A stretch of 64,000 bases of DNA from Escherichia phage KBNP1711: sequence record NC_023593.1. One strand, 5' to 3'. Under the pieces are notes generated by a model. The model was not told where the DNA came from. It was given only the letters and a program-made list of their open reading frames with translations, and made no database searches. The position numbers and the translations under genes are program-made. Of the stretch, positions 4,007 to 50,292 are shown piece after piece. Position 1 is the first letter of the stretch. Each line of letters starts with the position of its first letter.

Positions 4007-6250
4007 ATGGCTAAGAAGAATTTTAGTGAAGATGTATTGGATGAACTGCGCGTTGATCTTCAACGTCGATTCAACTACGCTCAAGGCTACGTAGATATCG
4101 CTGTAAAAGGCTATGCTCGTGAAGCTTGGGAATATTTTTATGGGAACCTTCCTGCTCCAGTTACAGCTGGTAGTTCTAGTTGGGTCGATCGTACAGTATG
4201 GGAATCAGTAAACGGTACACTCCAAGATATCATCAACGTATTCTGTTCAGGTGATGAAGCAGTAACGTTTGTAGCGGACAACCAAGCAGATAGTGATGCA
4301 GCTGACGTAGCAACTAAGCTCGTTAACCAAATCCTGTTGCGTGATAATCCGGGATACAATGTTATTTCCTCAGCGGCACAAGAGTGTCTTGTCACTCGTA
4401 ACTCTTTTATCAAATACTATTGGGATGAACAAACCTCCACTCAGACAGAAGAGGCAGAGGGCGTACCTCCAGAAGCACTTGCTGCATATGTGCAGGGATT
4501 AGAGGCTGGCGGTCTTGAAGATTTAGAAGTATTTACCACTGATAATGATGACGGTACAGTGGACGTCAAGGTTAACTACAAACAAACAGTAAAGCGTGTG
4601 AAGGTTGAGTATGTCCCTTCCGAACAAATCTTTGTAGATGAACATGCAACCAGCTTTGCTGATGCACAATATTTCTGTCATCGTGTACGTCGTTCTAAAG
4701 AAGATCTCGTAGCTATGGGTTTCCCTAAAGATGAGATTGAAGCTTTTAACGATTGGACGGATACGATGGACACTACCCAATCGACTGTTGCTTGGTCACG
4801 TACTGACTGGCGTCAGGATATAGATTCAGATATCGGTGTAGACACTGATGATATCGCTTCTATGGTTTGGGTTTATGAACATTACATCCGTACTGGTGTA
4901 CTGGATAAGAATAAAGAAGCAAAACTCTATCAGGTTATTCAAGCAGGTGAGCATATTCTCAGTTGTGAAGAAGTAACCAGTATTCCGTTCGTAACTTTCT
5001 GCCCATACCCAATTCCGGGTTCATTTTATGGTCAGTCTGTCTATGACATTACGAAAGATATCCAAGATTTACGTACCGCACTGGTTCGTGGTTATATTGA
5101 TAACGTAAACAATGCTAACTATGGTCGTTATAAAGCGATTGTAGGGGCGTATGACCGTCGCTCTTTGCTAGACAACCGTCCGGGTGGCGTTGTTGAAATG
5201 GAGCGTCAGGATGCGATTGACTTATTCCCATACCATAATCTACCTCAGGGTATCGATGGTCTGTTGGGAATGTCTGAAGAATTGAAAGAAACTCGTACAG
5301 GTGTCACTAAGCTCGGAATGGGTATTAACCCTGATGTGTTTAAGAATGACAACGCCTATGCTACTGTAGGTTTGATGATGAATGCAGCTCAGAACCGTCT
5401 CCGTATGGTATGTCGTAACATTGCACATAACGGTATGGTTGAGTTAATGCGTGGAATCTACAACCTTATCAGAGAGAATGGTGAAACCCCTTTACAGGTT
5501 CAAACACCTCGTGGAATGGTTCAGGTAAATCCAAAACAATTACCACCTCGTCACAATTTACAAGTTGTTGTAGCTATCTCTCCTAATGAGAAAGCAGAAC
5601 GTGCACAGAAATTGATTAGTCTGAAACAGCTGATTGCTGCTGACCAACAGTTAGCACCTCTCTTTACTCTGGAGCAAGATCGTTATATGACTGCACAAAT
5701 CTTTGAGTTGATGGGAATTAAGGATACTCATAAATACTTAATGCCTCTTGAGCAGTATCAGCCACCGCAGCCGTCTCCAATGGAAATTCTCCAGCTGGAA
5801 ATGACTAAAGCTCAGGTTGAGAACGTACAGGCTTCTTCTCAGAAGATGATTGCTGATGCATTCGACCAGCGTGAACGTACTACATTCGAACAGCAGAAAG
5901 CTGCCGATGAGTTCAGTCTGAAGCAGGAAGAGTTGCAGTTCAAGCAAGAAAATGCAGCAGACGTAATGACCTTAGAGAATCGTAAGGAAGACAATAGTGC
6001 TACTCTGGAACAAGCTAAACACAAGTTGTCTCTTCTTCAGCAGCAGGTTCGTCAGTATGAATCCGTACTGAAAGAACTACAGATGGTCATGGACCATCAG
6101 GTTGACCAAGAGAAGATTGTTGCTCAAGCACAAATTCAGGATAAGACTTTGGAACTCCAAAAGAAAGAGTCAAATGTAACTAAGAAAGACCAACAGAAGA
6201 CTCTAAAAGATTCTAGGATTCCTAACAGACGTCTTGGTAGTAAAAAATAA
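4007..6250 (+). CDS. portal protein
   Basis: 747-aa ORF directly after terL with coiled-coil C-terminus; GAGGGAGAG RBS. Confidence 0.75.
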   Translation: MAKKNFSEDVLDELRVDLQRRFNYAQGYVDIAVKGYAREAWEYFYGNLPAPVTAGSSSWVDRTVWESVNGTLQDIINVFCSGDEAVTFVADNQADSDAADVATKLVNQILLRDNPGYNVISSAAQECLVTRNSFIKYYWDEQTSTQTEEAEGVPPEALAAYVQGLEAGGLEDLEVFTTDNDDGTVDVKVNYKQTVKRVKVEYVPSEQIFVDEHATSFADAQYFCHRVRRSKEDLVAMGFPKDEIEAFNDWTDTMDTTQSTVAWSRTDWRQDIDSDIGVDTDDIASMVWVYEHYIRTGVLDKNKEAKLYQVIQAGEHILSCEEVTSIPFVTFCPYPIPGSFYGQSVYDITKDIQDLRTALVRGYIDNVNNANYGRYKAIVGAYDRRSLLDNRPGGVVEMERQDAIDLFPYHNLPQGIDGLLGMSEELKETRTGVTKLGMGINPDVFKNDNAYATVGLMMNAAQNRLRMVCRNIAHNGMVELMRGIYNLIRENGETPLQVQTPRGMVQVNPKQLPPRHNLQVVVAISPNEKAERAQKLISLKQLIAADQQLAPLFTLEQDRYMTAQIFELMGIKDTHKYLMPLEQYQPPQPSPMEILQLEMTKAQVENVQASSQKMIADAFDQRERTTFEQQKAADEFSLKQEELQFKQENAADVMTLENRKEDNSATLEQAKHKLSLLQQQVRQYESVLKELQMVMDHQVDQEKIVAQAQIQDKTLELQKKESNVTKKDQQKTLKDSRIPNRRLGSKK

Positions 6251-32643: not shown

Positions 32644-33180
32644 TCACTCCCCTAAAAGTTTACGAACTTCTTTCTTGAATGTTTCATACTCTTCAGGGTA
32701 TTCAAACCCACACTCTAACATTGCATAGTGAACAACCTTAAGCAAGTCTTGAACCTTGTTCTTATCTTTGTGTCGATAAGCATACTTGATCATGTTACAT
32801 TGCTGGAAATTAAGCTGAGGGTTAGCTGCATAGAATTCAATAGGTTGAATCTTCTTGGAGTCAGGGTCATAATGAGCACCGCCAACCATTACATCTAGTG
32901 CTGGACTTCTTTGGCTAGTCTTCTCAGTTGTATTCTTAAAACTGACCACAGGAACAGAAGAGTAAACTATATACTCTTCCCCTACTGGTGGTTTTACTCT
33001 TAGTCCACGCATGGCATATTCAATCTTTATGTCAGCGGAACCTGAAGCGACCTCTTCAATAGATTTTCGATAGCTGTCAATAACTGCCCTTAGCATAGAG
33101 ATTGTTTTGGTCATATCTTTTACTTTCTCATTCAGTACAACAATCTCTGATTCTTTGAAATCGAACAAATTCATTTCCAC
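32644..33180 (-). CDS. DUF3310-like phage protein
   Basis: 'QPIEF...NMIKYAYRHKDK' resembles the DUF3310 signature (recalled). Confidence 0.3.
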   Translation of the reverse strand: MEMNLFDFKESEIVVLNEKVKDMTKTISMLRAVIDSYRKSIEEVASGSADIKIEYAMRGLRVKPPVGEEYIVYSSVPVVSFKNTTEKTSQRSPALDVMVGGAHYDPDSKKIQPIEFYAANPQLNFQQCNMIKYAYRHKDKNKVQDLLKVVHYAMLECGFEYPEEYETFKKEVRKLLGE

Positions 33181-37731: not shown

Positions 37732-38120
37732 CGAATCACCAAAGGCTCATCAGAATACACAGGAGCGGCTATTTCTACAGGAGGTGCTGCTTTAAGGTCA
37801 TTGAGTCTTACACCCTTTAGCATCCCATCTAGGTGGTCCATCTTGGGGATTCCAACAGGGAAGTCATCAATCCAAATATCTACAAAGAAACCAAGCTGCC
37901 GACAAACATCATCTTTCTGTACACCATTACAAAAGATAATAGGAATCTGCAAGCACTCTGCATCAATCTTAATGTCGTGGTTGTCGTACCCATTAGGCTC
38001 TGCAAAGCGATAAGTTACGAATCGTACATCATAACCCTTCGACTGCATTAATGCTACCACAGAACGCCACAGCTCTTTATCAGAGGTGTAGGTATCATCG
38101 TAATCTAAACCAATGTTCAT
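37728..38120 (-). CDS. HAD-like phosphatase (putative)
   Basis: N-terminal 'GLDYDDTYT' (DxDxT motif). Confidence 0.35.
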   Translation of the reverse strand: MNIGLDYDDTYTSDKELWRSVVALMQSKGYDVRFVTYRFAEPNGYDNHDIKIDAECLQIPIIFCNGVQKDDVCRQLGFFVDIWIDDFPVGIPKMDHLDGMLKGVRLNDLKAAPPVEIAAPVYSDEPLVIR

Positions 38121-38134
38121 ATCTAATCCTTAGA

Positions 38135-38160
38135 CAAGAAAAGCCGCCCGAAGGCAGCTC
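38135..38160 (-). terminator. rho-independent terminator (- strand)
   Basis: 'gctgcc ttcg ggcggc' hairpin plus 'ttttctt' on the - strand. Confidence 0.5.
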
Positions 38161-38166
38161 TTTAGT

Positions 38167-38364
38167 TTATGCTTCTTGTTCTTCTGGCTCTTCAGCATTC
38201 AGCTGTTCCAGTCGATCATTCTCAATACTCAGATCGATAACTACACCAGTGAGTTCTACTACAGCCTGACGCAGTGCATCTTTACCCATCGAGTTAACTT
38301 GGGTCATGAAGAATGCTTTACCTTCTTCTGTGGATAGGGTTTCTTTAAGTTCAATAGGGGTCAT
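38167..38364 (-). CDS. hypothetical small acidic protein
   Basis: ORF track. Confidence 0.3.
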   Translation of the reverse strand: MTPIELKETLSTEEGKAFFMTQVNSMGKDALRQAVVELTGVVIDLSIENDRLEQLNAEEPEEQEA

Positions 38365-38711
38365 TTATTATCTCTCATAAATTCGGGTCACTGTACCACC
38401 CGCAGCTTCTACTTGAGCTACGAATGAATCACGCTCTTCATCTGTATAAACCAGCTCATTCAGGAACGTTCCTTCAGAGTCTTGGTACAGGATGTTCCAC
38501 TTAGGCAGGGGCTTACGGATCAAGTCCATCATTCTTTATCCTCCCGTTCTTTCCACAGTTGGGCTAGTTCTAAATAATACTCAGCTTCGTCAGTGCGTCC
38601 TTGTTCTTTACAGATGCTATACTGACGGAAGCACCAATCTGAAGGTTGCTCTTCCACTTCCTTGTCTCCTTGAGAAGTAATCAATAAGACTACTTCATTT
38701 GTTTTTCCAAT

Positions 38712-38903
38712 TCACTCTTCCATTTGAGGAATCTCTAAATGCTTTATAGAGAAGTTTTTATTTGGGAAAGTCTTTATTAGCCAAGCTGCTTCTTGGATAG
38801 CTTTGTTTTCTTTCTCGTAAATACAAAGCCGAGAATCCAATGAAACAATCCTCCCGGTTTCGCTGAAGATAGCCCATGTTTTGTATGTGTAAGTAGGTGT
38901 CAT
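38712..38903 (-). CDS. hypothetical small protein
   Basis: ORF track. Confidence 0.3.
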   Translation of the reverse strand: MTPTYTYKTWAIFSETGRIVSLDSRLCIYEKENKAIQEAAWLIKTFPNKNFSIKHLEIPQMEE

Positions 38904-39275
38904 TTATTTCTCCAACACCGAGATGCTATATCTATCGTGTAAGGTTTTTCTAACCCAAGCAATGCGTTTAGGGTTTTTGTGATGAGAGCCTGTGTAACGT
39001 TCTCTGTGGTATGTGTCACAACCGAAAGGGTATACCGGGTCCTCAAACCCTTCGTGTTCAAACATATACGTCAGATCATTAAAGTCCGTATGTTTTGTGA
39101 AGAAGTAATAGCTTTTATAACAACGGTAGTTGAAACACAAACCGTGCTCAGGACTGAACCATTTTGGGTATTCGTCTGTCTGAGAGATGTTATAATACTG
39201 GAGGAGGAAATCCTCCATCCCCCTTTCTTTGGCAATACATCTTAGTGTTCGGTAAATAATGTTACTTTGTTTCAT
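38904..39275 (-). CDS. hypothetical protein
   Basis: ORF track. Confidence 0.35.
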   Translation of the reverse strand: MKQSNIIYRTLRCIAKERGMEDFLLQYYNISQTDEYPKWFSPEHGLCFNYRCYKSYYFFTKHTDFNDLTYMFEHEGFEDPVYPFGCDTYHRERYTGSHHKNPKRIAWVRKTLHDRYSISVLEK

Positions 39276-39284
39276 TGTGAATTC

Positions 39285-39766
39285 TCAATGTGTGTGATTC
39301 CAGTTTAATCCTATCTGACAATCAGATGCCAGAGGACATTCCATCTTGAGGTACTCACCAGCTTTCTTAACACAAAGCTCTGTAAGCTCTTTTAGCTTTT
39401 GTGCATCATTACGGTGAACAGAGAACTGCCCTTCATCGTGCATGTCAATAACCTTCGCACAACGAACACCATCACGCTCAATCCACTTGTTAAGGAAAAG
39501 CATGGCATACTTCATAACAATCGCACCAGCACTCTGTAATAGGGTATTCAGTGCTTTATGAACCATTACCTTACCTGTTGCATCACGTCTCATTGTAACA
39601 CGACGACCATCAACACCCAAGATATAACCTTGAGCTGCCTTCTCTGTCATACGTTCAATAAGAATTGCAATACAAGGATTCTCTGCCAAGAAACGTGCTC
39701 TCATTACTGCACCTTCTTCAGAGCCTCCACCAACGATAGAACCGAGCTTAGCATCACCTGCCCCAT
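39285..39766 (-). CDS. DNA polymerase (family A), exon 2
   Basis: 'GAGDAKLGSIVGG...ALNTLLQSAGA...HDE' matches the T7 DNA polymerase C-terminus; frame open upstream of track start 39704. Confidence 0.7.
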
Positions 39767-40547
39767 CAATAGTTCAAGCAAAGGCGCTACTCTTTGCTCC
39801 GTTCTCTTATGAACTGCTTACAGTTTCCTGTAAGATCGGACTATATCTTCATCTCCACCTTTACGTGCTGAGAGACAGGCGCTTCCGTAACACTTGTTAC
39901 GTACTCCCTTCCGGGATAGTCTCTGAACTTTCCGTGACACAAACTTTTCTACATAGATCAATGAACTGAGCATCAGATAGTTTACCTTTTGCATTATTCA
40001 CTTCCCAAGTTACCCATTGGACATTTCCAATTTCGTAACCTTTCGAATTATCCTTCCTATCTAAAGAAAGTTTATTCGGATGTCCGCTGACGAAAGATAG
40101 TGAATCTCCTGTCAAGGCACATTTGTAGTTTTGCTGAGAAAGAAGCTCGAATAAATAGTCTTGAGTAATCGTGAACTCAAAACCCCTTTCTCTAGCTCTG
40201 TGATGGGAGTTGTGATATCTCTCACGAACCGCTCCACCCCAAGTTTGTCGATATTGTCCCATAGCAGCAGATGCTGCACTTCTGTTTCGACGTCTCCACT
40301 CATTTGAAGCAATGAGAGCACAATTTTTTACATTGACATTGCTTTCCATCTTTACTCTTAGATGAATTATGGAAACTGTCGAGTGGCTTTTCTTCGCCAC
40401 AGCTTGAACATATCTTTGTCATAAACACCTCCTTGTGTTGATGTTTATGTCACGGCTTAGCTGCTGATTGGCATATCTTTCGACTTAGCTTTCCAGCAAT
40501 TCACCTGTTTTGCTTCTGCACATTTCTATGCAGTGAACCAATTATTT
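39767..40547 (-). mobile_element. group I intron (putative) interrupting DNA polymerase motif B
   Basis: Exon 1 ends on U, intron ends on G; splicing restores 'KTFIYAFNYGAGD'. Confidence 0.55.
39897..40400 (-). CDS. intron-encoded HNH homing endonuclease
   Basis: 'SLDRKDNSKGYEIGNVQWVTWEVNNAKG' HNH-type motif; ORF lies within the intron. Confidence 0.6.
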   Translation of the reverse strand: MAKKSHSTVSIIHLRVKMESNVNVKNCALIASNEWRRRNRSAASAAMGQYRQTWGGAVRERYHNSHHRARERGFEFTITQDYLFELLSQQNYKCALTGDSLSFVSGHPNKLSLDRKDNSKGYEIGNVQWVTWEVNNAKGKLSDAQFIDLCRKVCVTESSETIPEGST

Positions 40548-41910
40548 AGTTAAAGGCATATATAAATGTCTTCGCATTGTCACGAGTAGGAAGACCAGCA
40601 AGTCTCTGATTATGAGAATGGATATCACCTTCTAACAGAATATCACGATACATAACAGCAGAAGCTAAACCACGTTCAGCTAATGCTTTCTTACCAGCGT
40701 TACCTTCTGCAATTGCTTCAGCAAGCATGTCTCTACACTCTTTAATGAGGTAGTGAGCAAGCATACGAAGCTCTAATCCAGAACCATCATAACCTAGGAA
40801 GAGTTCTCTACCAGCTGGTACATAATACTTATATAACCCTACTGGTTTGTCTTTCTTTCCGGGTTTTCCACGTTCGTAGATAACGTTTGTATTTTTTCGT
40901 AAGTAACACCCATCAGGGATATTGTTGGTAATGATGAAAGGATAGTTATGACTATCATCTGTGGAGTAGTTAGATTGAAATAAACTCCTACACTCGTGAC
41001 CAAACAGACCGCGAGAAGGAATATTAACAACAATGCGATGTTTAAAACGAAATGTCGGAGTAGCGCAGCTATTAGCTTCCGCTGAGAGTTTACCATCTGG
41101 ACGTTCCTTATCAATCAGTCCATTAATCAAGCCTAGTCTGTGAGCCGCTACAACACGTCTCTTAAGCAGACTTCCCACCTTACCTAGATCACCCTCAAGA
41201 CCTTCTTCAAGAGTCTCTTCGAGGTTTGTAGGAGCTGTGGGCCACTTGTTCGAAGTAGCTAATGCTCTCTTAATTTCATCAAAGGTTACAGGTTTCTTCC
41301 TGTTAGGGTTTAAACCTAAACCAAAGACATAAGCCTTCATGTAGTTGACAGTTTTGTGACGAAAGTGCTTATCCAAGAATTTCTTGATATCAGCATCAAC
41401 CATCTGAGCTGTCTGTCGCTCTTTCTCATTGCCACGCATCCAAGAGTTGTACCATTCTTGATACGTTCCACACTTACGCAAGGCTCGCTTAATCTCAAAT
41501 GTGTTCCAAGGCTTCTTAGATGTATTAAATTCTGGAGGAAGAAAACCTTCATCCATCAGTGCTTCTTTAACTCGTGCATCCTTTGATGGGTCAAAGTCAA
41601 CATACTCAACACAAGTAAAAGCTCCACCGATATCTTCCCTCTTTAACCCCACTCTGTCACAATATAATTGAGGCCACTTCTGAAGAGCACCAGTCTTCTT
41701 AAAGGGTTTCATGTAAGTAGAACCATCAACCCTCATCTTAGGTAACAGAGGAATCAGCTCTCTGTCGATGTTAACGATAATCTCTCTGAGAAGGTGAACA
41801 TACCACCGTGCATTCCTCCGATTAAAGTTGACACCACTCTTCGCTTGCTTTGAAATTATATCAGCGACAGTCATCTCCGTTAAGAACGGAAGTACATCAG
41901 GGTTCTCCAT
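40548..41910 (-). CDS. DNA polymerase (family A), exon 1
   Basis: Motif A 'DGSGLELRMLAHY'; start of motif B 'RDNAKTFIY'; AAGGAG RBS. Confidence 0.7.
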
Positions 41911-41925
41911 CACCCTCTCCTTTTA

Positions 41926-44892: not shown

Positions 44893-45549
44893 TTAATTCT
44901 CCAAAGTTTTCTTCAGAGCTGCCCACGAGATTGGGTAGAGTTTAGCCATCTCTTCATCCAGAGATTGAGCAAACACTCGAACTTCGTATTGAGCGTGAGA
45001 GGAGAGTCGCTGACGACACAACTCAAACCAGCCATACAAAGAACCAGTCCACACCCACTCAGTGATCATTCCCTGAGGAAGAACAAATCGAGCTTGCTCT
45101 GGTGCAACGAATTCAATCAACTTGTCATATGCTGCTAGAGAGGCTTCATATGCATCGTTAATCAACATTAATGCTTCAGCTCGCTCTCCATCAATGAGTT
45201 GAACCCCTGAACCTGCATGGAGGTCCGAAGGTCTCGCAAAAATCTCTTTAGGGATGAAGACTTCAACTGCTCCATCTTTATACCTCCGGGACATTTCGTT
45301 CCACGAGAATCCAACCTGATGCTTGCCCAGCTGTCTCGCAATTGCGATAGGTGCTTTGCATCGGAAACTGACTTGCGGGTGCCTGAAAGGCGTGACATGC
45401 TTCTCTCTTGCGAGGAAGTTGATGAGACGTTCATCACGTTCATTTAAATCACCTTCACGGGTTACGCCAAAGGAAACTCGAGCTGCGTTTACTACGCTAC
45501 GATCACTTCCCATAGCTTCGATTAATGTTGCTTGTAATTGTTCATTCAT
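44893..45549 (-). CDS. thyX: flavin-dependent thymidylate synthase (ThyX family), atypical RHR motif
   Basis: Matches recalled Thermotoga ThyX ('AARVSF','KAPI..ARQ','S.RY','SHAQ.E'); has KHQ where RHR is expected. Confidence 0.65.
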   Translation of the reverse strand: MNEQLQATLIEAMGSDRSVVNAARVSFGVTREGDLNERDERLINFLAREKHVTPFRHPQVSFRCKAPIAIARQLGKHQVGFSWNEMSRRYKDGAVEVFIPKEIFARPSDLHAGSGVQLIDGERAEALMLINDAYEASLAAYDKLIEFVAPEQARFVLPQGMITEWVWTGSLYGWFELCRQRLSSHAQYEVRVFAQSLDEEMAKLYPISWAALKKTLEN

Positions 45550-45564
45550 CCGTGAATTTCCTTA

Positions 45565-45774
45565 TTAATATTCTTTTACATAATAAACCACTAAGGTTCC
45601 CATCTCTGACAATGTTGATTTATGTAAGCTTACTTTACTATAAATCTTTGGAGCCATCTTAAGAGCCTTCTTAAAACGGCGAGCATCTTTACGAGTAGCA
45701 AAGTGCTCTGTAACAGGTATAGACAGATCTTGGTAGATATAATATACCACCGTCCAATATTTTTTCATAATCAA
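45565..45774 (-). CDS. small protein, member of a 4-copy paralogue family
   Basis: 'W.V........F.TRK(D/E)AR..KK...' and C-terminal YY shared with 47631..48267. Confidence 0.4.
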   Translation of the reverse strand: MIMKKYWTVVYYIYQDLSIPVTEHFATRKDARRFKKALKMAPKIYSKVSLHKSTLSEMGTLVVYYVKEY

Positions 45775-46043
45775 ACACCTAGGGCAGTAGTTAAGAATGC
45801 TTTCAGGTTTGCTTCAGTCTGCATACCAGAGATGCTGTAGTGTGCACCACTGTTACGGTCAGGCACAACGAAAGCAGGGATACTTCGTACACCATACTTA
45901 ACAGCTTGTTCACGACCATCACCTTCAAGGATATTAATCTCTTCCACTTCTACATCAAACTCCTTAACAACCTTCTCAAAGGTAGGAGCCATTGCTTTAC
46001 ATGGAGCACACTGATCACTATAAAACTTAATTACTTTACTCAT
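45771..46043 (-). CDS. thioredoxin-like protein
   Basis: 'CAPC' active-site dithiol; AAGGA RBS before internal Met (track ORF to 46097). Confidence 0.6.
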   Translation of the reverse strand: MSKVIKFYSDQCAPCKAMAPTFEKVVKEFDVEVEEINILEGDGREQAVKYGVRSIPAFVVPDRNSGAHYSISGMQTEANLKAFLTTALGV

Positions 46044-46669: not shown

Positions 46670-47254
46670 TTAGTAAGACACGTCACCACTGGAGTGGGAC
46701 ATGTTGCTCTTGACGAAGTAACAGAACTTTCCAAGACCTTCATTAATTTCTTGAAGCATACTCTGATCAACTGGATAGGTGCACAAGTCTGAATCAAACT
46801 CGTCCATCTTCTCAATGATACACATAAGAGTCATGCACATGTCAGAAAGCATACCGTCCATGTCGAGATCAGCGTTACCTTCTCGGAACCAAGCACAACC
46901 AAGATAGCTACTAGCTGTTGCATCCACTTTAATGCAGTGATAACGCATTCGCTCTGCTACCCGATCACCAGTTTCACGAGCATAATCTTCTAGTTCATCG
47001 AACATACCGTGAACACCTTGGAAACCAGCTCCAGAGACGTTCCAGTGATAGTTCTTTGATTTGATGTGTAGAAGTTCAAGGTTAGCCTGCACACCACACA
47101 GGATGTGCTCTAGGCTGTTACCGCTAATCAATTTATTCATTCCCTCTAGACGAGAGATAGAAGAGTCAGTTGTAGAGAATGGGTTGCTAGAACCCACTCG
47201 TGTCAGTTCAGGTAAGTCGAAGACATTATTATGCATTAGGTTCATCTCCTTCAA
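46670..47254 (-). CDS. Dps/ferritin-like protein
   Basis: 'ANLELLHIKSKNYHWNVSGAGFQGVHGMFDELEDYARETGDRVAERM' resembles the Dps di-iron site helix pair. Confidence 0.45.
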   Translation of the reverse strand: MKEMNLMHNNVFDLPELTRVGSSNPFSTTDSSISRLEGMNKLISGNSLEHILCGVQANLELLHIKSKNYHWNVSGAGFQGVHGMFDELEDYARETGDRVAERMRYHCIKVDATASSYLGCAWFREGNADLDMDGMLSDMCMTLMCIIEKMDEFDSDLCTYPVDQSMLQEINEGLGKFCYFVKSNMSHSSGDVSY

Positions 47255-47630: not shown

Positions 47631-47840
47631 TCAGTAGTAAATTACTTTAGACATAAAAGAACCAGTGTTAGGGTCTTCATGCCAGCGATGTATGTCAGCG
47701 CTTTTTACTATTGTGCCCAGAGTCTTCAACTGTTTCTTAGCAATACGAGCCTCTTTGCGAGTGTCAAACAATTTGATGTTATCTTTTCTCATATGTTGCT
47801 CAAGATCCCAAACAACATGAATAGCCCACATCTTTTTCAT
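47631..47840 (-). CDS. small protein, paralogue family member
   Basis: Tandem array member. Confidence 0.4.
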   Translation of the reverse strand: MKKMWAIHVVWDLEQHMRKDNIKLFDTRKEARIAKKQLKTLGTIVKSADIHRWHEDPNTGSFMSKVIYY

Positions 47841-48055
47841 TAGTAATGTACCTTTCCGCTGATATAAATACGGCCTGAGGTATACTCATAGCCCTTGAGA
47901 ATCTTAACAGAGGTAGTGGAGCCATCGTTTAGTGCACAGATTGACTTCTTAAGATTGCGTGCATCTTCTCGTGTCTTCTGGTAGGTCATGGTCACACCCC
48001 CACTCTTCCACTCTGTTTTAACTAACCAAACTATTTTCATAAGACCTGCTCTCAT
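47840..48055 (-). CDS. small protein, paralogue family member
   Basis: Tandem array member. Confidence 0.4.
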   Translation of the reverse strand: MRAGLMKIVWLVKTEWKSGGVTMTYQKTREDARNLKKSICALNDGSTTSVKILKGYEYTSGRIYISGKVHY

Positions 48056-48267
48056 TAGTAGTACACCTTGCTACCAGCCATAAATGCCCCTGTTGAGTTT
48101 ATCATGGCTTTGCTGATAGTAACTTTCTTACACCGTAAACATACCTTCCAGTTCTTTTTACAGATTCGAGCTTCTTGTCGAGTGTTACAAAAAATAGCCG
48201 AAGATATTTCTTGGGTGTTGTTATCATAAACACGAACACACCACTTTTTCATTGTTCCAAACTCCAC
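48055..48267 (-). CDS. small protein, paralogue family member
   Basis: Tandem array member. Confidence 0.4.
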   Translation of the reverse strand: MEFGTMKKWCVRVYDNNTQEISSAIFCNTRQEARICKKNWKVCLRCKKVTISKAMINSTGAFMAGSKVYY

Positions 48268-48467
48268 TATCTGTCAACCGATTCAGGGACAAACTGCATT
48301 ACACAGACCTGATTACGAGGAAGGTTTATTTCACAAGCGGCTTTTCTATCAGCAACCTTAGATGACGAGTTAGGGCCAATTTGAGCCATCATTAATCCCA
48401 TAGCTAACATGCCGAGGATTACACCAATTGCTAAAGATGCTACAGTTTCTTGTTTCATCTTGATCAC
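48267..48467 (-). CDS. small membrane protein
   Basis: One hydrophobic segment 'LAIGVILGMLAMGLMMA'. Confidence 0.3.
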   Translation of the reverse strand: MIKMKQETVASLAIGVILGMLAMGLMMAQIGPNSSSKVADRKAACEINLPRNQVCVMQFVPESVDR

Positions 48468-48997
48468 ACCCCTTTAGATGCAACTACACCTTCAGAATTA
48501 TTATAACGACCCTTCACTGCATATGAATGTTCCCCTGCATGAGAGTGCTCAAACATAACCATCTGACCAACACGCATACCAGCACGAACTCGTAAGCTAT
48601 GATGCTTGGTTACGTTATGGAATTCAAATGTCAGCTTACTGCTATTAAACCCTGCGTCTGCCCACCCAGCGTGGAGATGGTTCAAGCCACAACGAGCCAT
48701 CGAAGACCGCAGGACAAACAAACTGGAGATGTTATCTGGAAGGTTAAACTCTTCCATCGAGTGAGCTAAGAAGAATTGTCCCGGAGTAATGATAATACCG
48801 TCTTCAGGGATTTTTACTTCTTTCCACTTGAGATTTTCTTTCGCATCAATGTCAACAATCCCATCAGCCTGTTCTTCAATAAGGATAGTATCACCAATAC
48901 GGATATCCACACTAGCAGCGTTAACATACTTATGCTCCGCATCCAGAAAACCGTTATCGATAACGTCGTGTAATTCCATGCTTCCTAATAAACTCAT
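48464..48997 (-). CDS. dcd: dCTP deaminase (dCTP deaminase/dUTPase superfamily)
   Basis: 'VDIRIGD', 'LRSSMARCGL', 'HAGWADAGF' match E. coli Dcd motifs (recalled). Confidence 0.65.
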   Translation of the reverse strand: MSLLGSMELHDVIDNGFLDAEHKYVNAASVDIRIGDTILIEEQADGIVDIDAKENLKWKEVKIPEDGIIITPGQFFLAHSMEEFNLPDNISSLFVLRSSMARCGLNHLHAGWADAGFNSSKLTFEFHNVTKHHSLRVRAGMRVGQMVMFEHSHAGEHSYAVKGRYNNSEGVVASKGV

Positions 48998-49011: not shown

Positions 49012-50292
49012 TTAATCTGTGATACTGTCGCTTTCGTCAACCCAGACTGGATTATTAATCTGTCCTAAACGACGAGCTGATGTTTCGTTAATAGAGTTAA
49101 CCCCTGCTGTGCGAGGGTTTGTGTACCACGGTCGGACTATGCTACCCGACTGAATTGCTTGGTTTGCTTCTACATGCCACCTGTTTGATACCGTGTTGGC
49201 TTCAAAGTTACCACCCGCTCCACCACTGATAGGCACAGCTTGAGCTGGTTGATTTACTCGGTTAGTTCCTGCCCCAAAGGCTGCTGCAAATTCAGACACA
49301 CGTGCACTAAATGAAGAACGAGCACGCTGAGGAGGTGATATATCATTTCGTGTATCTACTGCACGAGGCATAGCCCAAGTATCATCTGTTGAGATATCAG
49401 GGGTAGGCTCTTGCTCTAGAGGTTGAAGATTAGCTGTCCATTGACTATTCAGTATACGATAGAAATCTGCACCATAACCACTTCGGATAACATCCTCTCT
49501 GACACCAAAGAAGCGACTGATATCCCCACCGATTCGGGCTAGTTTGTCATTGTATGCAGGTATGATTATTCCACCCTCTGTCACTAAATCAGAGACACGA
49601 CTTGTTGTAAGTGGTGAAGTGATCCAACAATAATAATCAGTAATGTGACCATCGTATCCGAAGAATGCAATCTCTGCATCAGGCCATTTCTTGTGGACAT
49701 ATGCCACTTCACGGTTAGAACAAACAGGGATTGCACCTGTTTCAGTCATTGCATAGAAGCCGTCAGAAGAGAACCAAAGTGAATCTAGTGCTAAGAATCC
49801 ACGACACACGCTCGGGAAAGTAGCAGCCAGCGCCCCAAGTGAGGTAGGTTCATTGAACATTAACTGAATCTTTGCACTCTGATAATTAATCTCTAGGATA
49901 TCTACAAAATTCAAAGAAGACCCAGGGGCATATTGATTATTACTTCGTCCAATATCCTGCTCAATGAGAAGAGATCTTGTTTCAACACCATGAGCCTCTG
50001 CCCACTCTTTGAAATCTTCAAGGAACAAGCGAGCCTTAGCTCGCCACATCGACCGATCAGTTACAGACTGTCTCGGCAATCCACCCTCTGTAGTGATGAG
50101 AAAGATATCAATGTCGTGAGGTTCACGCGTCTGAAAGATTGCATCCCTAACAGCACCACCTGCAATGATAGGGTACACACCATCAGGGATTAAACGGTTT
50201 GCAATCAACTCGTTAATTAACGTAAGACCAGACACAAGCTGCGGACTATCATCAATCCGACGACGAATTAGTGCATTAGGGATATTATACAT
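49012..50292 (-). CDS. nucleotidyltransferase (CCA-adding/poly(A) polymerase head-domain type)
   Basis: 'IIAGGAVRDAIF...HDIDIFL' matches the 'GGxVRD...DxD' active site. Confidence 0.5.
   Translation of the reverse strand: MYNIPNALIRRRIDDSPQLVSGLTLINELIANRLIPDGVYPIIAGGAVRDAIFQTREPHDIDIFLITTEGGLPRQSVTDRSMWRAKARLFLEDFKEWAEAHGVETRSLLIEQDIGRSNNQYAPGSSLNFVDILEINYQSAKIQLMFNEPTSLGALAATFPSVCRGFLALDSLWFSSDGFYAMTETGAIPVCSNREVAYVHKKWPDAEIAFFGYDGHITDYYCWITSPLTTSRVSDLVTEGGIIIPAYNDKLARIGGDISRFFGVREDVIRSGYGADFYRILNSQWTANLQPLEQEPTPDISTDDTWAMPRAVDTRNDISPPQRARSSFSARVSEFAAAFGAGTNRVNQPAQAVPISGGAGGNFEANTVSNRWHVEANQAIQSGSIVRPWYTNPRTAGVNSINETSARRLGQINNPVWVDESDSITD

Follow-up and report, generated by a model that had tools for sequence, protein, structure and literature searches.

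The stretch of DNA examined here, 64,000 nucleotides of Escherichia phage KBNP1711 (sequence record NC_023593.1; hereafter the window) with a GC content of 42.7%, carries on its minus strand a homologue of the flavin-dependent thymidylate synthase ThyX in which the RHR motif regarded as the signature of the family reads KHQ. The DNA of the region is 87–89% identical to that of Escherichia phages EP335, Bas89, NJ01, 172-1 and WFI101126, which belong to the genus Kuravirus (subfamily Gordonclarkvirinae) as phiEco32-like podoviruses of C3 morphology, and in each of which the gene is annotated as a thymidylate synthase; the annotation of these relatives, including a sigma factor, puts the present phage in the same group. 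The gene and its motif lie as follows.

44893..45549, minus strand: thyX, encoding a 218-aa flavin-dependent thymidylate synthase of the KHQ/SRRY subfamily (assigned from Pfam, TIGR02170, PDB and AlphaFold2)
45280..45324, minus strand: the variant motif K76-H77-Q78-VGFSWNEM-S87-R88-R89-Y90, in place of RHR-X7-S-G-R-Y (read from the DNA and from alignment to 1kq4 and 6j61)

The protein and its variant motif

The open reading frame opens with ATG, about 10 nt downstream of an AAGGA ribosome-binding site, and its product matches Pfam PF02511 (Thy1) at E = 1.4e-43 and 149.4 bits (cutoff 24.8), with residues 8–206 covering positions 1–190 of the 191 in the profile; the NCBIfam thyX equivalog TIGR02170 scores 128.8 bits against a cutoff of 87.9. 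The closest solved structures are the ThyX enzymes of T. thermophilus (6j61, 2.4e-31) and Thermotoga maritima (1kq4, 5e-25). None of the 21 PDB matches is close, the best (E = 2.4e-31) standing at 33–34% identity, and none is a solved KHQ-type structure; the T. thermophilus and T. maritima alignments that were inspected read RHR. ThyX is a homotetramer with bound flavin adenine dinucleotide (FAD), and because its active site is assembled from three subunits, the AlphaFold2 monomer model (32 homologues; mean predicted local distance difference test, pLDDT, 94.2; predicted template-modelling score, pTM, 0.88) was used for fold only. Foldseek aligned this model with T. maritima ThyX at a template-modelling (TM) score of ~0.81 and 33–34% identity, and all of the top 50 Foldseek PDB matches are T. 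maritima ThyX (TM ~0.8, E ~1e-18).

Like T. maritima ThyX (TM0449; 1kq4, 1o26) and T. thermophilus ThyX (6j61), the protein has the full-length fold, and it shares with them (in T. maritima numbering, used below unless a residue is given as the query's own) H53, R74, Q75, H79, N85, E86, S88, R90, Y91, E144, R147, R174 and H178. It is unlike them in carrying KHQ for RHR, one extra residue before the Ser, and G89R, and in the further changes E58R, R143P, N163S, R165Y, W76L and N169E. Judged by homology, fold and catalytic residues, the product is a full-length ThyX that departs only from the literal RHR-X7-S signature, and the proposal of the initial annotation that it is a ThyX homologue is borne out by PF02511, TIGR02170 and the ThyX fold.

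In the HMMER alignment the query segment arqlgkhqvgfswnemsrry is set against arqwfrhria-synelsgry of 1kq4, which places K76/H77/Q78 (codons AAG CAT CAG at 45316..45324, minus strand) opposite R78/H79/R80 of T. maritima, and S87-R88-R89-Y90 (codons TCC CGG AGG TAT at 45280..45291, minus strand) opposite S88-G89-R90-Y91. One additional residue lies between KHQ and the Ser, X8 and not X7, so that the segment reads KHQ-X8-S, with the first Arg replaced by Lys and the second by Gln. The initial annotation had reached the same reading by eye, anchoring it on the strings AARVSF, KAPIAIARQ and SHAQYE, all of which are present; the change of RHR to KHQ with the His and the Ser retained is correct, as seen in the DNA and in the 1kq4 alignment, and a proper multiple alignment of 246 members of the clade with seven canonical ThyX sequences (T. 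maritima, T. thermophilus and five RHR-type phage enzymes) likewise finds RHR not retained.

The RHR-X7-S signature was reportedly defined on early sequences (by Myllykallio, in 2002). It is treated as the signature of the ThyX family and has been used to reason on FAD and deoxyuridine monophosphate (dUMP) binding and to filter data, in one case as an explicit dataset filter (PMC2826268). The literal RHR-X7-S is not universal across the homologous ThyX family. As for what the two arginines do, the statement in the initial annotation that both contact the dUMP phosphate holds in part: Arg78 and Arg80 are among the residues described as hydrogen-bonding dUMP (PMC3498832), whereas a structural review assigns the RHR motif chiefly to the FAD phosphates and ribityl, with the first Arg alone also touching the isoalloxazine ring and dUMP, and names Arg190 of the M. 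tuberculosis enzyme as another FAD-phosphate ligand (PMC6514825). By alignment, the equivalent of this Arg190 is T. maritima R165.

Distribution of the KHQ type and the changes linked to it

Of the 120 closest clusters at 90% identity, which run from 94% down to 54% identity and take in phages of Salmonella, Yersinia and Staphylococcus, 119 have KHQ followed by xGFSWNExSRRY. When 1.84 billion representatives at 50% identity were searched, at least 358 proteins matched at E<=1e-30, and among the best 150 of these 358 RHR does not occur at all; KHQ is the majority state there, alongside KHK, KHT, KHE, KHM, RHT, RHQ and others. The KHQ subfamily is common in phages and chromosomal in several bacterial phyla. 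The branch that lacks RHR is very large, and includes most coliphage, vibriophage and roseophage ThyX together with the ThyX encoded on the chromosomes of several little-studied bacterial phyla. A search of the accessible literature found no paper describing or testing a KHQ/SRRY-type ThyX, and KHQ/SRRY is a real, conserved and apparently undescribed ThyX subfamily signature, the functional consequence of which is most probably modest.

Phage enzymes of the RHR type stand apart from this clade: those of Rhodobacter phage RcRios, Gordonia phage Rickmore, Mycobacterium phage McWolfish and Pseudomonas phage BL5 are 26–32% identical to the query and keep RHR...NExSGRY (SARY in RcRios), whereas the query clade has K-H-x...WNExSRRY. 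A further departure is seen in the ThyX-like proteins of Bacillus phage BSTP8 and Streptomyces phage Wipeout, which have K-Y-x, with the motif His lost and SRRY kept; they read ARQWWKY... with an insertion before GWNESSRRY, and are still annotated as thymidylate synthase. Inteins (Intein_splicing with HNH, or LAGLIDADG) are carried by the ThyX homologues P0122, P0136, P0187 and P0224. In the first three of these an HNH intein is placed within the motif loop, the junctions being KHQSGF|CLTGDT in P0122 and RHVVGT|CVTGDT in P0187.

Cellular members were sought by a pattern scan (ARQLxKHQ[VTS]G and WTGSL..., from an 11-sequence alignment) of one genome per species across 185,579 species, which found at least 45 KHQ-type loci. 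A Phenylobacterium locus (with ERF, MT-A70, VRR-NUC and primase genes) and the locus L038 (T7-type primase-helicase, PolA, ribonucleotide reductase (RNR) and PhoH) are prophage or phage DNA. In two Spirochaetia, which share gene order around the KHQ thyX, the gene directly adjoins those for dihydroorotate dehydrogenase (pyrD), orotidine monophosphate decarboxylase/orotate phosphoribosyltransferase (pyrF/E), aspartate carbamoyltransferase (pyrB) and a dihydroorotase-like amidohydrolase (pyrC), with citrate synthase upstream. In Nitrospinota it lies between AcrB/HlyD and IspH/MlaA, with synteny in two species; in Poribacteria it adjoins enolase-superfamily and aminotransferase genes, and in Dehalococcoidia the genes for 2-oxoacid dehydrogenase E1/E2. 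KHQ-type proteins are 92–97% identical within Nitrospinota, 80–98% within Poribacteria and 54–66% between lineages. To judge from these identities, such clustering by lineage is what vertical inheritance of a housekeeping gene would produce, and the chromosomal housekeeping contexts are the strongest indirect argument for an ordinary function of the KHQ type.

The motif does not change alone. In the alignment of 246 clade members, the following states depart from the canonical ones.

R78K: 220 of 246
R80Q: 192 of 246, the others having K, T, H, V and further residues, with R solely in one stray canonical sequence
G89R (SGRY to SRRY): 233 of 246
E58 to R or A: R in 145 and A in 44 of 246
R143P: 226 of 246
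N/D163S: 236 of 246
W76L: 212 of 246
R165 to Y or L: Y in 141 and L in 28 of 246

Across the alignment K78, Q80, R89, P143 and S163 co-occur, and the sole canonical sequence in the set holds E58, R78, R80, G89, a residue other than Pro at 143, and D163 together, while the rest carry the alternative set. E58R, N163S and R165Y, which also change together, fall at FAD-contact positions.

Against this background of change, much of the active site is retained: R28, H53, P56, F57, H59, R74, Q75, H79, E86, S88, R90, Y91, E144, R147, R174, Q180 and E182 are kept in ~93–100% of the clade, N85 is kept in 210 of the 246 members (85%), and position 30 is Ser in 175 and Thr in 69. Conservation reaches at least 98% for the catalytic and dUMP-binding residues H53, Q75, E86, S88, R90, Y91, R147 and R174, the last being invariant (246/246), and all of their equivalents are present in the query, as H51, Q73, E85, S87, R89, Y90, R154 and R181. 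In current mechanistic work it is S88, R90, Y91 and R174 that are credited with activating dUMP and enabling methylene transfer from the flavin, R174 activating uracil N3/O4 (PMC8316439). Since these uracil-activating residues are kept while the FAD-phosphate positions of RHR and R165 change, the conservation pattern indicates that the phosphate-holding part of the pocket is rebuilt and the part that does the uracil chemistry unchanged.

Where position 89 is Met, position 87 is Arg in six of six sequences (NERSMRY), a compensatory pattern suggesting that the loop needs a positive charge. A precedent for a side chain at this place comes from PBCV-1 ThyX (A674R; 2cfa), a viral ThyX of similar size in which the side chain of residue 89, a Gln, can reach into the dUMP phosphate pocket (PMC3498832). 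In sequence it matches the query only distantly (E = 2.5e-07), and it is of proven activity, which for the KHQ type is a prediction. From the linked states, the Met89/Arg87 pairing and the PBCV-1 Gln89, we infer that Arg89 (R88 in the query) or Arg87 contacts the phosphate in place of the missing Arg80. If this idea of a relocated Arg is right, the clade is a natural experiment on rebuilding the phosphate/FAD pocket, which would also matter for inhibitor design and for motif-based annotation.

A probable source of dTMP and the readings that compete with it

The function of the gene has to be considered together with the nucleotide genes of the window, of which the following bear on it.

48464..48997, minus strand: dCTP deaminase, possibly of the dUMP-forming bifunctional type and the likely supplier of the ThyX substrate (Pfam DCD, 1.4e-34; TIGR02274, 108.5 bits, cutoff 92.8)
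45771..46043, minus strand: thioredoxin, the immediate neighbour of thyX (Pfam Thioredoxin, 1.9e-13; a thioredoxin domain is annotated in Bas89)
32644..33180, minus strand: candidate deoxynucleoside monophosphate (dNMP) kinase, which could take deoxythymidine monophosphate (dTMP) to the diphosphate dTDP (PHROG 26149, 9.6e-108; PHROG 236)
49012..50292, minus strand: a 426-aa protein labelled nucleotidyltransferase, flanked by the dCTP deaminase and the DNA polymerase exonuclease subunit (PHROG 12715)

The dCTP deaminase and the thioredoxin are thus where the initial annotation had placed them. The best PDB matches of the deaminase are 4xjc and 2qxx/2qlp/4a6a (6e-15 to 1e-12), bifunctional enzymes from B. 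halodurans and M. tuberculosis that form dUMP; E. coli Dcd (1xs1) matches at 8e-8. The kinase candidate is called ‘deoxynucleoside monophosphate kinase’ in PHROG 26149 and ‘nucleotide kinase’ in PHROG 236, matches only DUF3310 in Pfam, and has equivalents in the relatives that are annotated as deoxynucleoside monophosphate kinase; it is presumably closer to nucleotide kinases of the T7 gp1.7 type than to those of the T4 gp1 type. Neither Pfam nor NCBIfam gives a match for the nucleotidyltransferase, the N-terminus of which (GGAVRD...DIDIF) resembles the head of a pol-beta/CCA-adding-type nucleotidyltransferase. No dUTPase, thyA or RNR is found among the annotations of Bas89.

The product is most likely a working ThyX that makes ordinary dTMP with a rewired phosphate/FAD pocket, belonging to a distinct and widespread subfamily, and the most probable outcome for the gene is an ordinary role in dTMP supply. 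It would convert dUMP, with methylenetetrahydrofolate (CH2-H4folate) and NADPH, to dTMP. The first motif Arg having become Lys and the second Gln, a new Arg stands two residues before the catalytic Tyr, and this Arg at 89 (or one at 87) would assume the phosphate contact of Arg80, leaving the chemistry at uracil C5 to S88, R90, Y91 and R174 with the flavin as before. Upstream, the dCTP deaminase would supply dUTP or dUMP; downstream, the phage nucleotide kinase would carry dTMP to dTDP and the host Ndk dTDP to dTTP. Flux through the module would then run from C nucleotides to T nucleotides, raising the supply of dTTP for a genome of 42.7% GC.

Comparable company is kept by such genes on metagenomic phage contigs unrelated to the window phage: a KHx-type thyX adjoins an RNR small-subunit gene on L056 and a T4-type dNMP kinase gene on L058 and L059, and on L060 a KHQ-type thyX lies beside a dCTP deaminase, a ferritin-like gene (4564..5073) and NrdD/NrdG. 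In P0166 a KHx-type ThyX and a T4-type dNMP kinase (PF21448) are naturally fused. As a gene of this phage, thyX is of moderate to low interest, and more is to be gained for ThyX enzymology and motif-based annotation.

Several points weigh against this assignment. In the accessible literature, no report was found in which a member of the KHQ clade had been tested biochemically or genetically. The cellular carriers may also have thyA or a canonical thyX. The case for compensation by the query's Arg88 consists of covariation and a single published observation. Neither arginine of the defining motif survives and several FAD-contact positions have changed, and therefore cofactor binding or kinetics of the KHQ type could differ substantially. 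Relatives of the phage are also reported to be remarkably resistant to restriction–modification (RM) systems, and the window shows no avoidance of EcoRI, EcoRV, EcoKI and EcoP1 sites.

It is conceivable, if unlikely, that the enzyme runs the same dTMP reaction and handles its cofactor differently, with FAD bound weakly or in another pose, or with flavin mononucleotide (FMN) used in its place. The site of the ADP moiety appears remodelled (R78K, R80Q, R165Y, N163S and E58R), and the altered RHR and R165 are FAD-phosphate/ribityl positions (PMC6514825), with a net loss of two positive charges there. Against this reading, Lys78 and His79 are kept, position 58 gains an Arg in only ~60% of the clade, and the fold and pocket core are predicted with high confidence (AlphaFold2, Foldseek) to be ThyX-like.

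A more radical alternative, which we regard as improbable, is that ThyX has been neofunctionalised, so that its flavin-methylene chemistry would release a non-canonical nucleotide that enters phage DNA and contributes to restriction resistance; one such product would be 5-hydroxymethyl-dUMP (5-hmdUMP), formed by hydration instead of reduction of the exocyclic-methylene intermediate. The reductive step in ThyX is performed by the flavin, and sequence alone may leave room for a changed outcome. In its favour, ThyX catalysis has yielded 5-hmdUMP, trapped as a product that derives from an intermediate (PMC3498832), and changes affect both the defining motif and several FAD-contact residues. It has also been reported that the Gordonclarkvirinae are remarkably RM-resistant with no known modification or inhibitor, the authors of this BASEL paper suspecting a modification at the nucleotide level and speculating on a part in it for the dCTP deaminase and the adjacent nucleotidyltransferase, with no mention of ThyX (PMC11990801). 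The paper on SU10 has nothing on thymidylate synthesis or restriction. The window holds 14 EcoRI, 34 EcoRV, 8 EcoKI and 115 EcoP1 sites, counts at or above expectation, by which site avoidance as the cause of RM resistance is rejected for these enzymes. The KHQ ThyX bears on the question of restriction resistance in the Gordonclarkvirinae. In its fullest form, this reading has the KHQ ThyX of Kuravirus-like phages making a 5-substituted dUMP, such as 5-hmdUMP, and, with the adjacent dCTP deaminase and the kinase, the base would replace or supplement thymine in virion DNA. This is a long shot, and if true it would account for the unexplained broad resistance.

What speaks against neofunctionalisation is that KHQ/SRRY is also found in housekeeping chromosomal contexts of four bacterial lineages, including beside pyr genes, and in hundreds of unrelated phages; that all catalytic residues are kept; and that neither the window nor the annotated relative Bas89 showed companion genes for downstream hypermodification or dTTP exclusion. 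The nucleotide kinase and dCTP deaminase that are present fit an ordinary dTTP supply equally well. Other sites are strongly avoided in the window, namely CCWGG (8 observed vs ~76 expected), GAGCTC (0 vs 12.8), CTGCAG (1 vs 18.6) and GGATCC (0 vs 10.9), which suggests present or recent exposure of the DNA to type II enzymes. 5-Hydroxymethyluracil (hmU) or U alone protects only weakly against restriction. A phage thymidylate synthase copy with an altered active site has an analogue in the ThyA-family dUMP/dCMP hydroxymethylases of SPO1 and T4, but it is an analogy only, their fold and family being unrelated to ThyX; in those enzymes base-recognition or hydride-transfer residues are changed, whereas the corresponding base-recognition and catalytic residues of the query are conserved. 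The caution in the initial annotation over a modified-pyrimidine pathway still stands, with the resistance of the relatives as its outside support (PMC11990801), and a role of the gene in such a pathway is not supported.

A changed base or sugar in the substrate, as in a deoxycytidine monophosphate (dCMP) C5-methylase or a UMP methylase, is very improbable. The motif does depart from the canonical one, and ThyX homologues with other substrates exist, PolB of polyoxin biosynthesis being one that methylates UMP; yet R174 is invariant, Q75, E86, S88, R90 and R147 are kept, and the gene is accompanied by a dCTP deaminase, which makes deoxyuridine nucleotides. The altered nucleotide specificity or chemistry suggested in the initial annotation is unlikely, given the retained uracil-recognising and catalytic residues, the compensating Arg at 89 or 87 and the housekeeping contexts in the four lineages.

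There remains the thought that this is a decaying gene, an inactive ThyX remnant tolerating the loss of both motif arginines since its E. coli host supplies ThyA and the phage copy is probably not essential. With a ratio of nonsynonymous to synonymous substitution rates (dN/dS) of 0.056 between the thyX of the window and its Bas89 orthologue, an intact full-length reading frame, a confident fold, and KHQ and SRRY conserved from 99% down to ~40% identity, this has next to no probability and is effectively refuted. Inteins usually occupy functionally essential sites, and because KHQ is conserved clade-wide, dN/dS is 0.056 and inteins sit within the motif loop, relaxed selection is excluded; the description of the gene as a ‘relaxed thymidylate synthase’ is contradicted by the low dN/dS and by a variant motif that is strictly conserved throughout a very large clade. 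On the evidence of these sequences, the KHQ substitution marks a large clade and is neither decay nor a one-off change.

Other genes of the region

Five further open reading frames lie in or beside the ThyX/dCTP-deaminase module.

46670..47254, minus strand: ferritin/Dps-like protein, annotated ‘DNA binding protein’ (Pfam Ferritin, 5.2e-07; PHROG 3636, 1.8e-52)
45565..45774, 47631..47840, 47840..48055 and 48055..48267, all minus strand: four small paralogous frames of 69–71 aa (PHROG 4939)

The four PHROG 4939 paralogues are scattered through the module and are 25–33% identical to one another, with W7, T27, R28, A31, R32, K35, K36, G59 and a C-terminal Tyr invariant. In the replication module of the relatives, which is broken by several HNH endonuclease genes, the DNA polymerase I of Bas89 (37835..40459) is annotated as two joined pieces with an endonuclease gene inside, and the equivalent region of the window lies at about 38900..41913.

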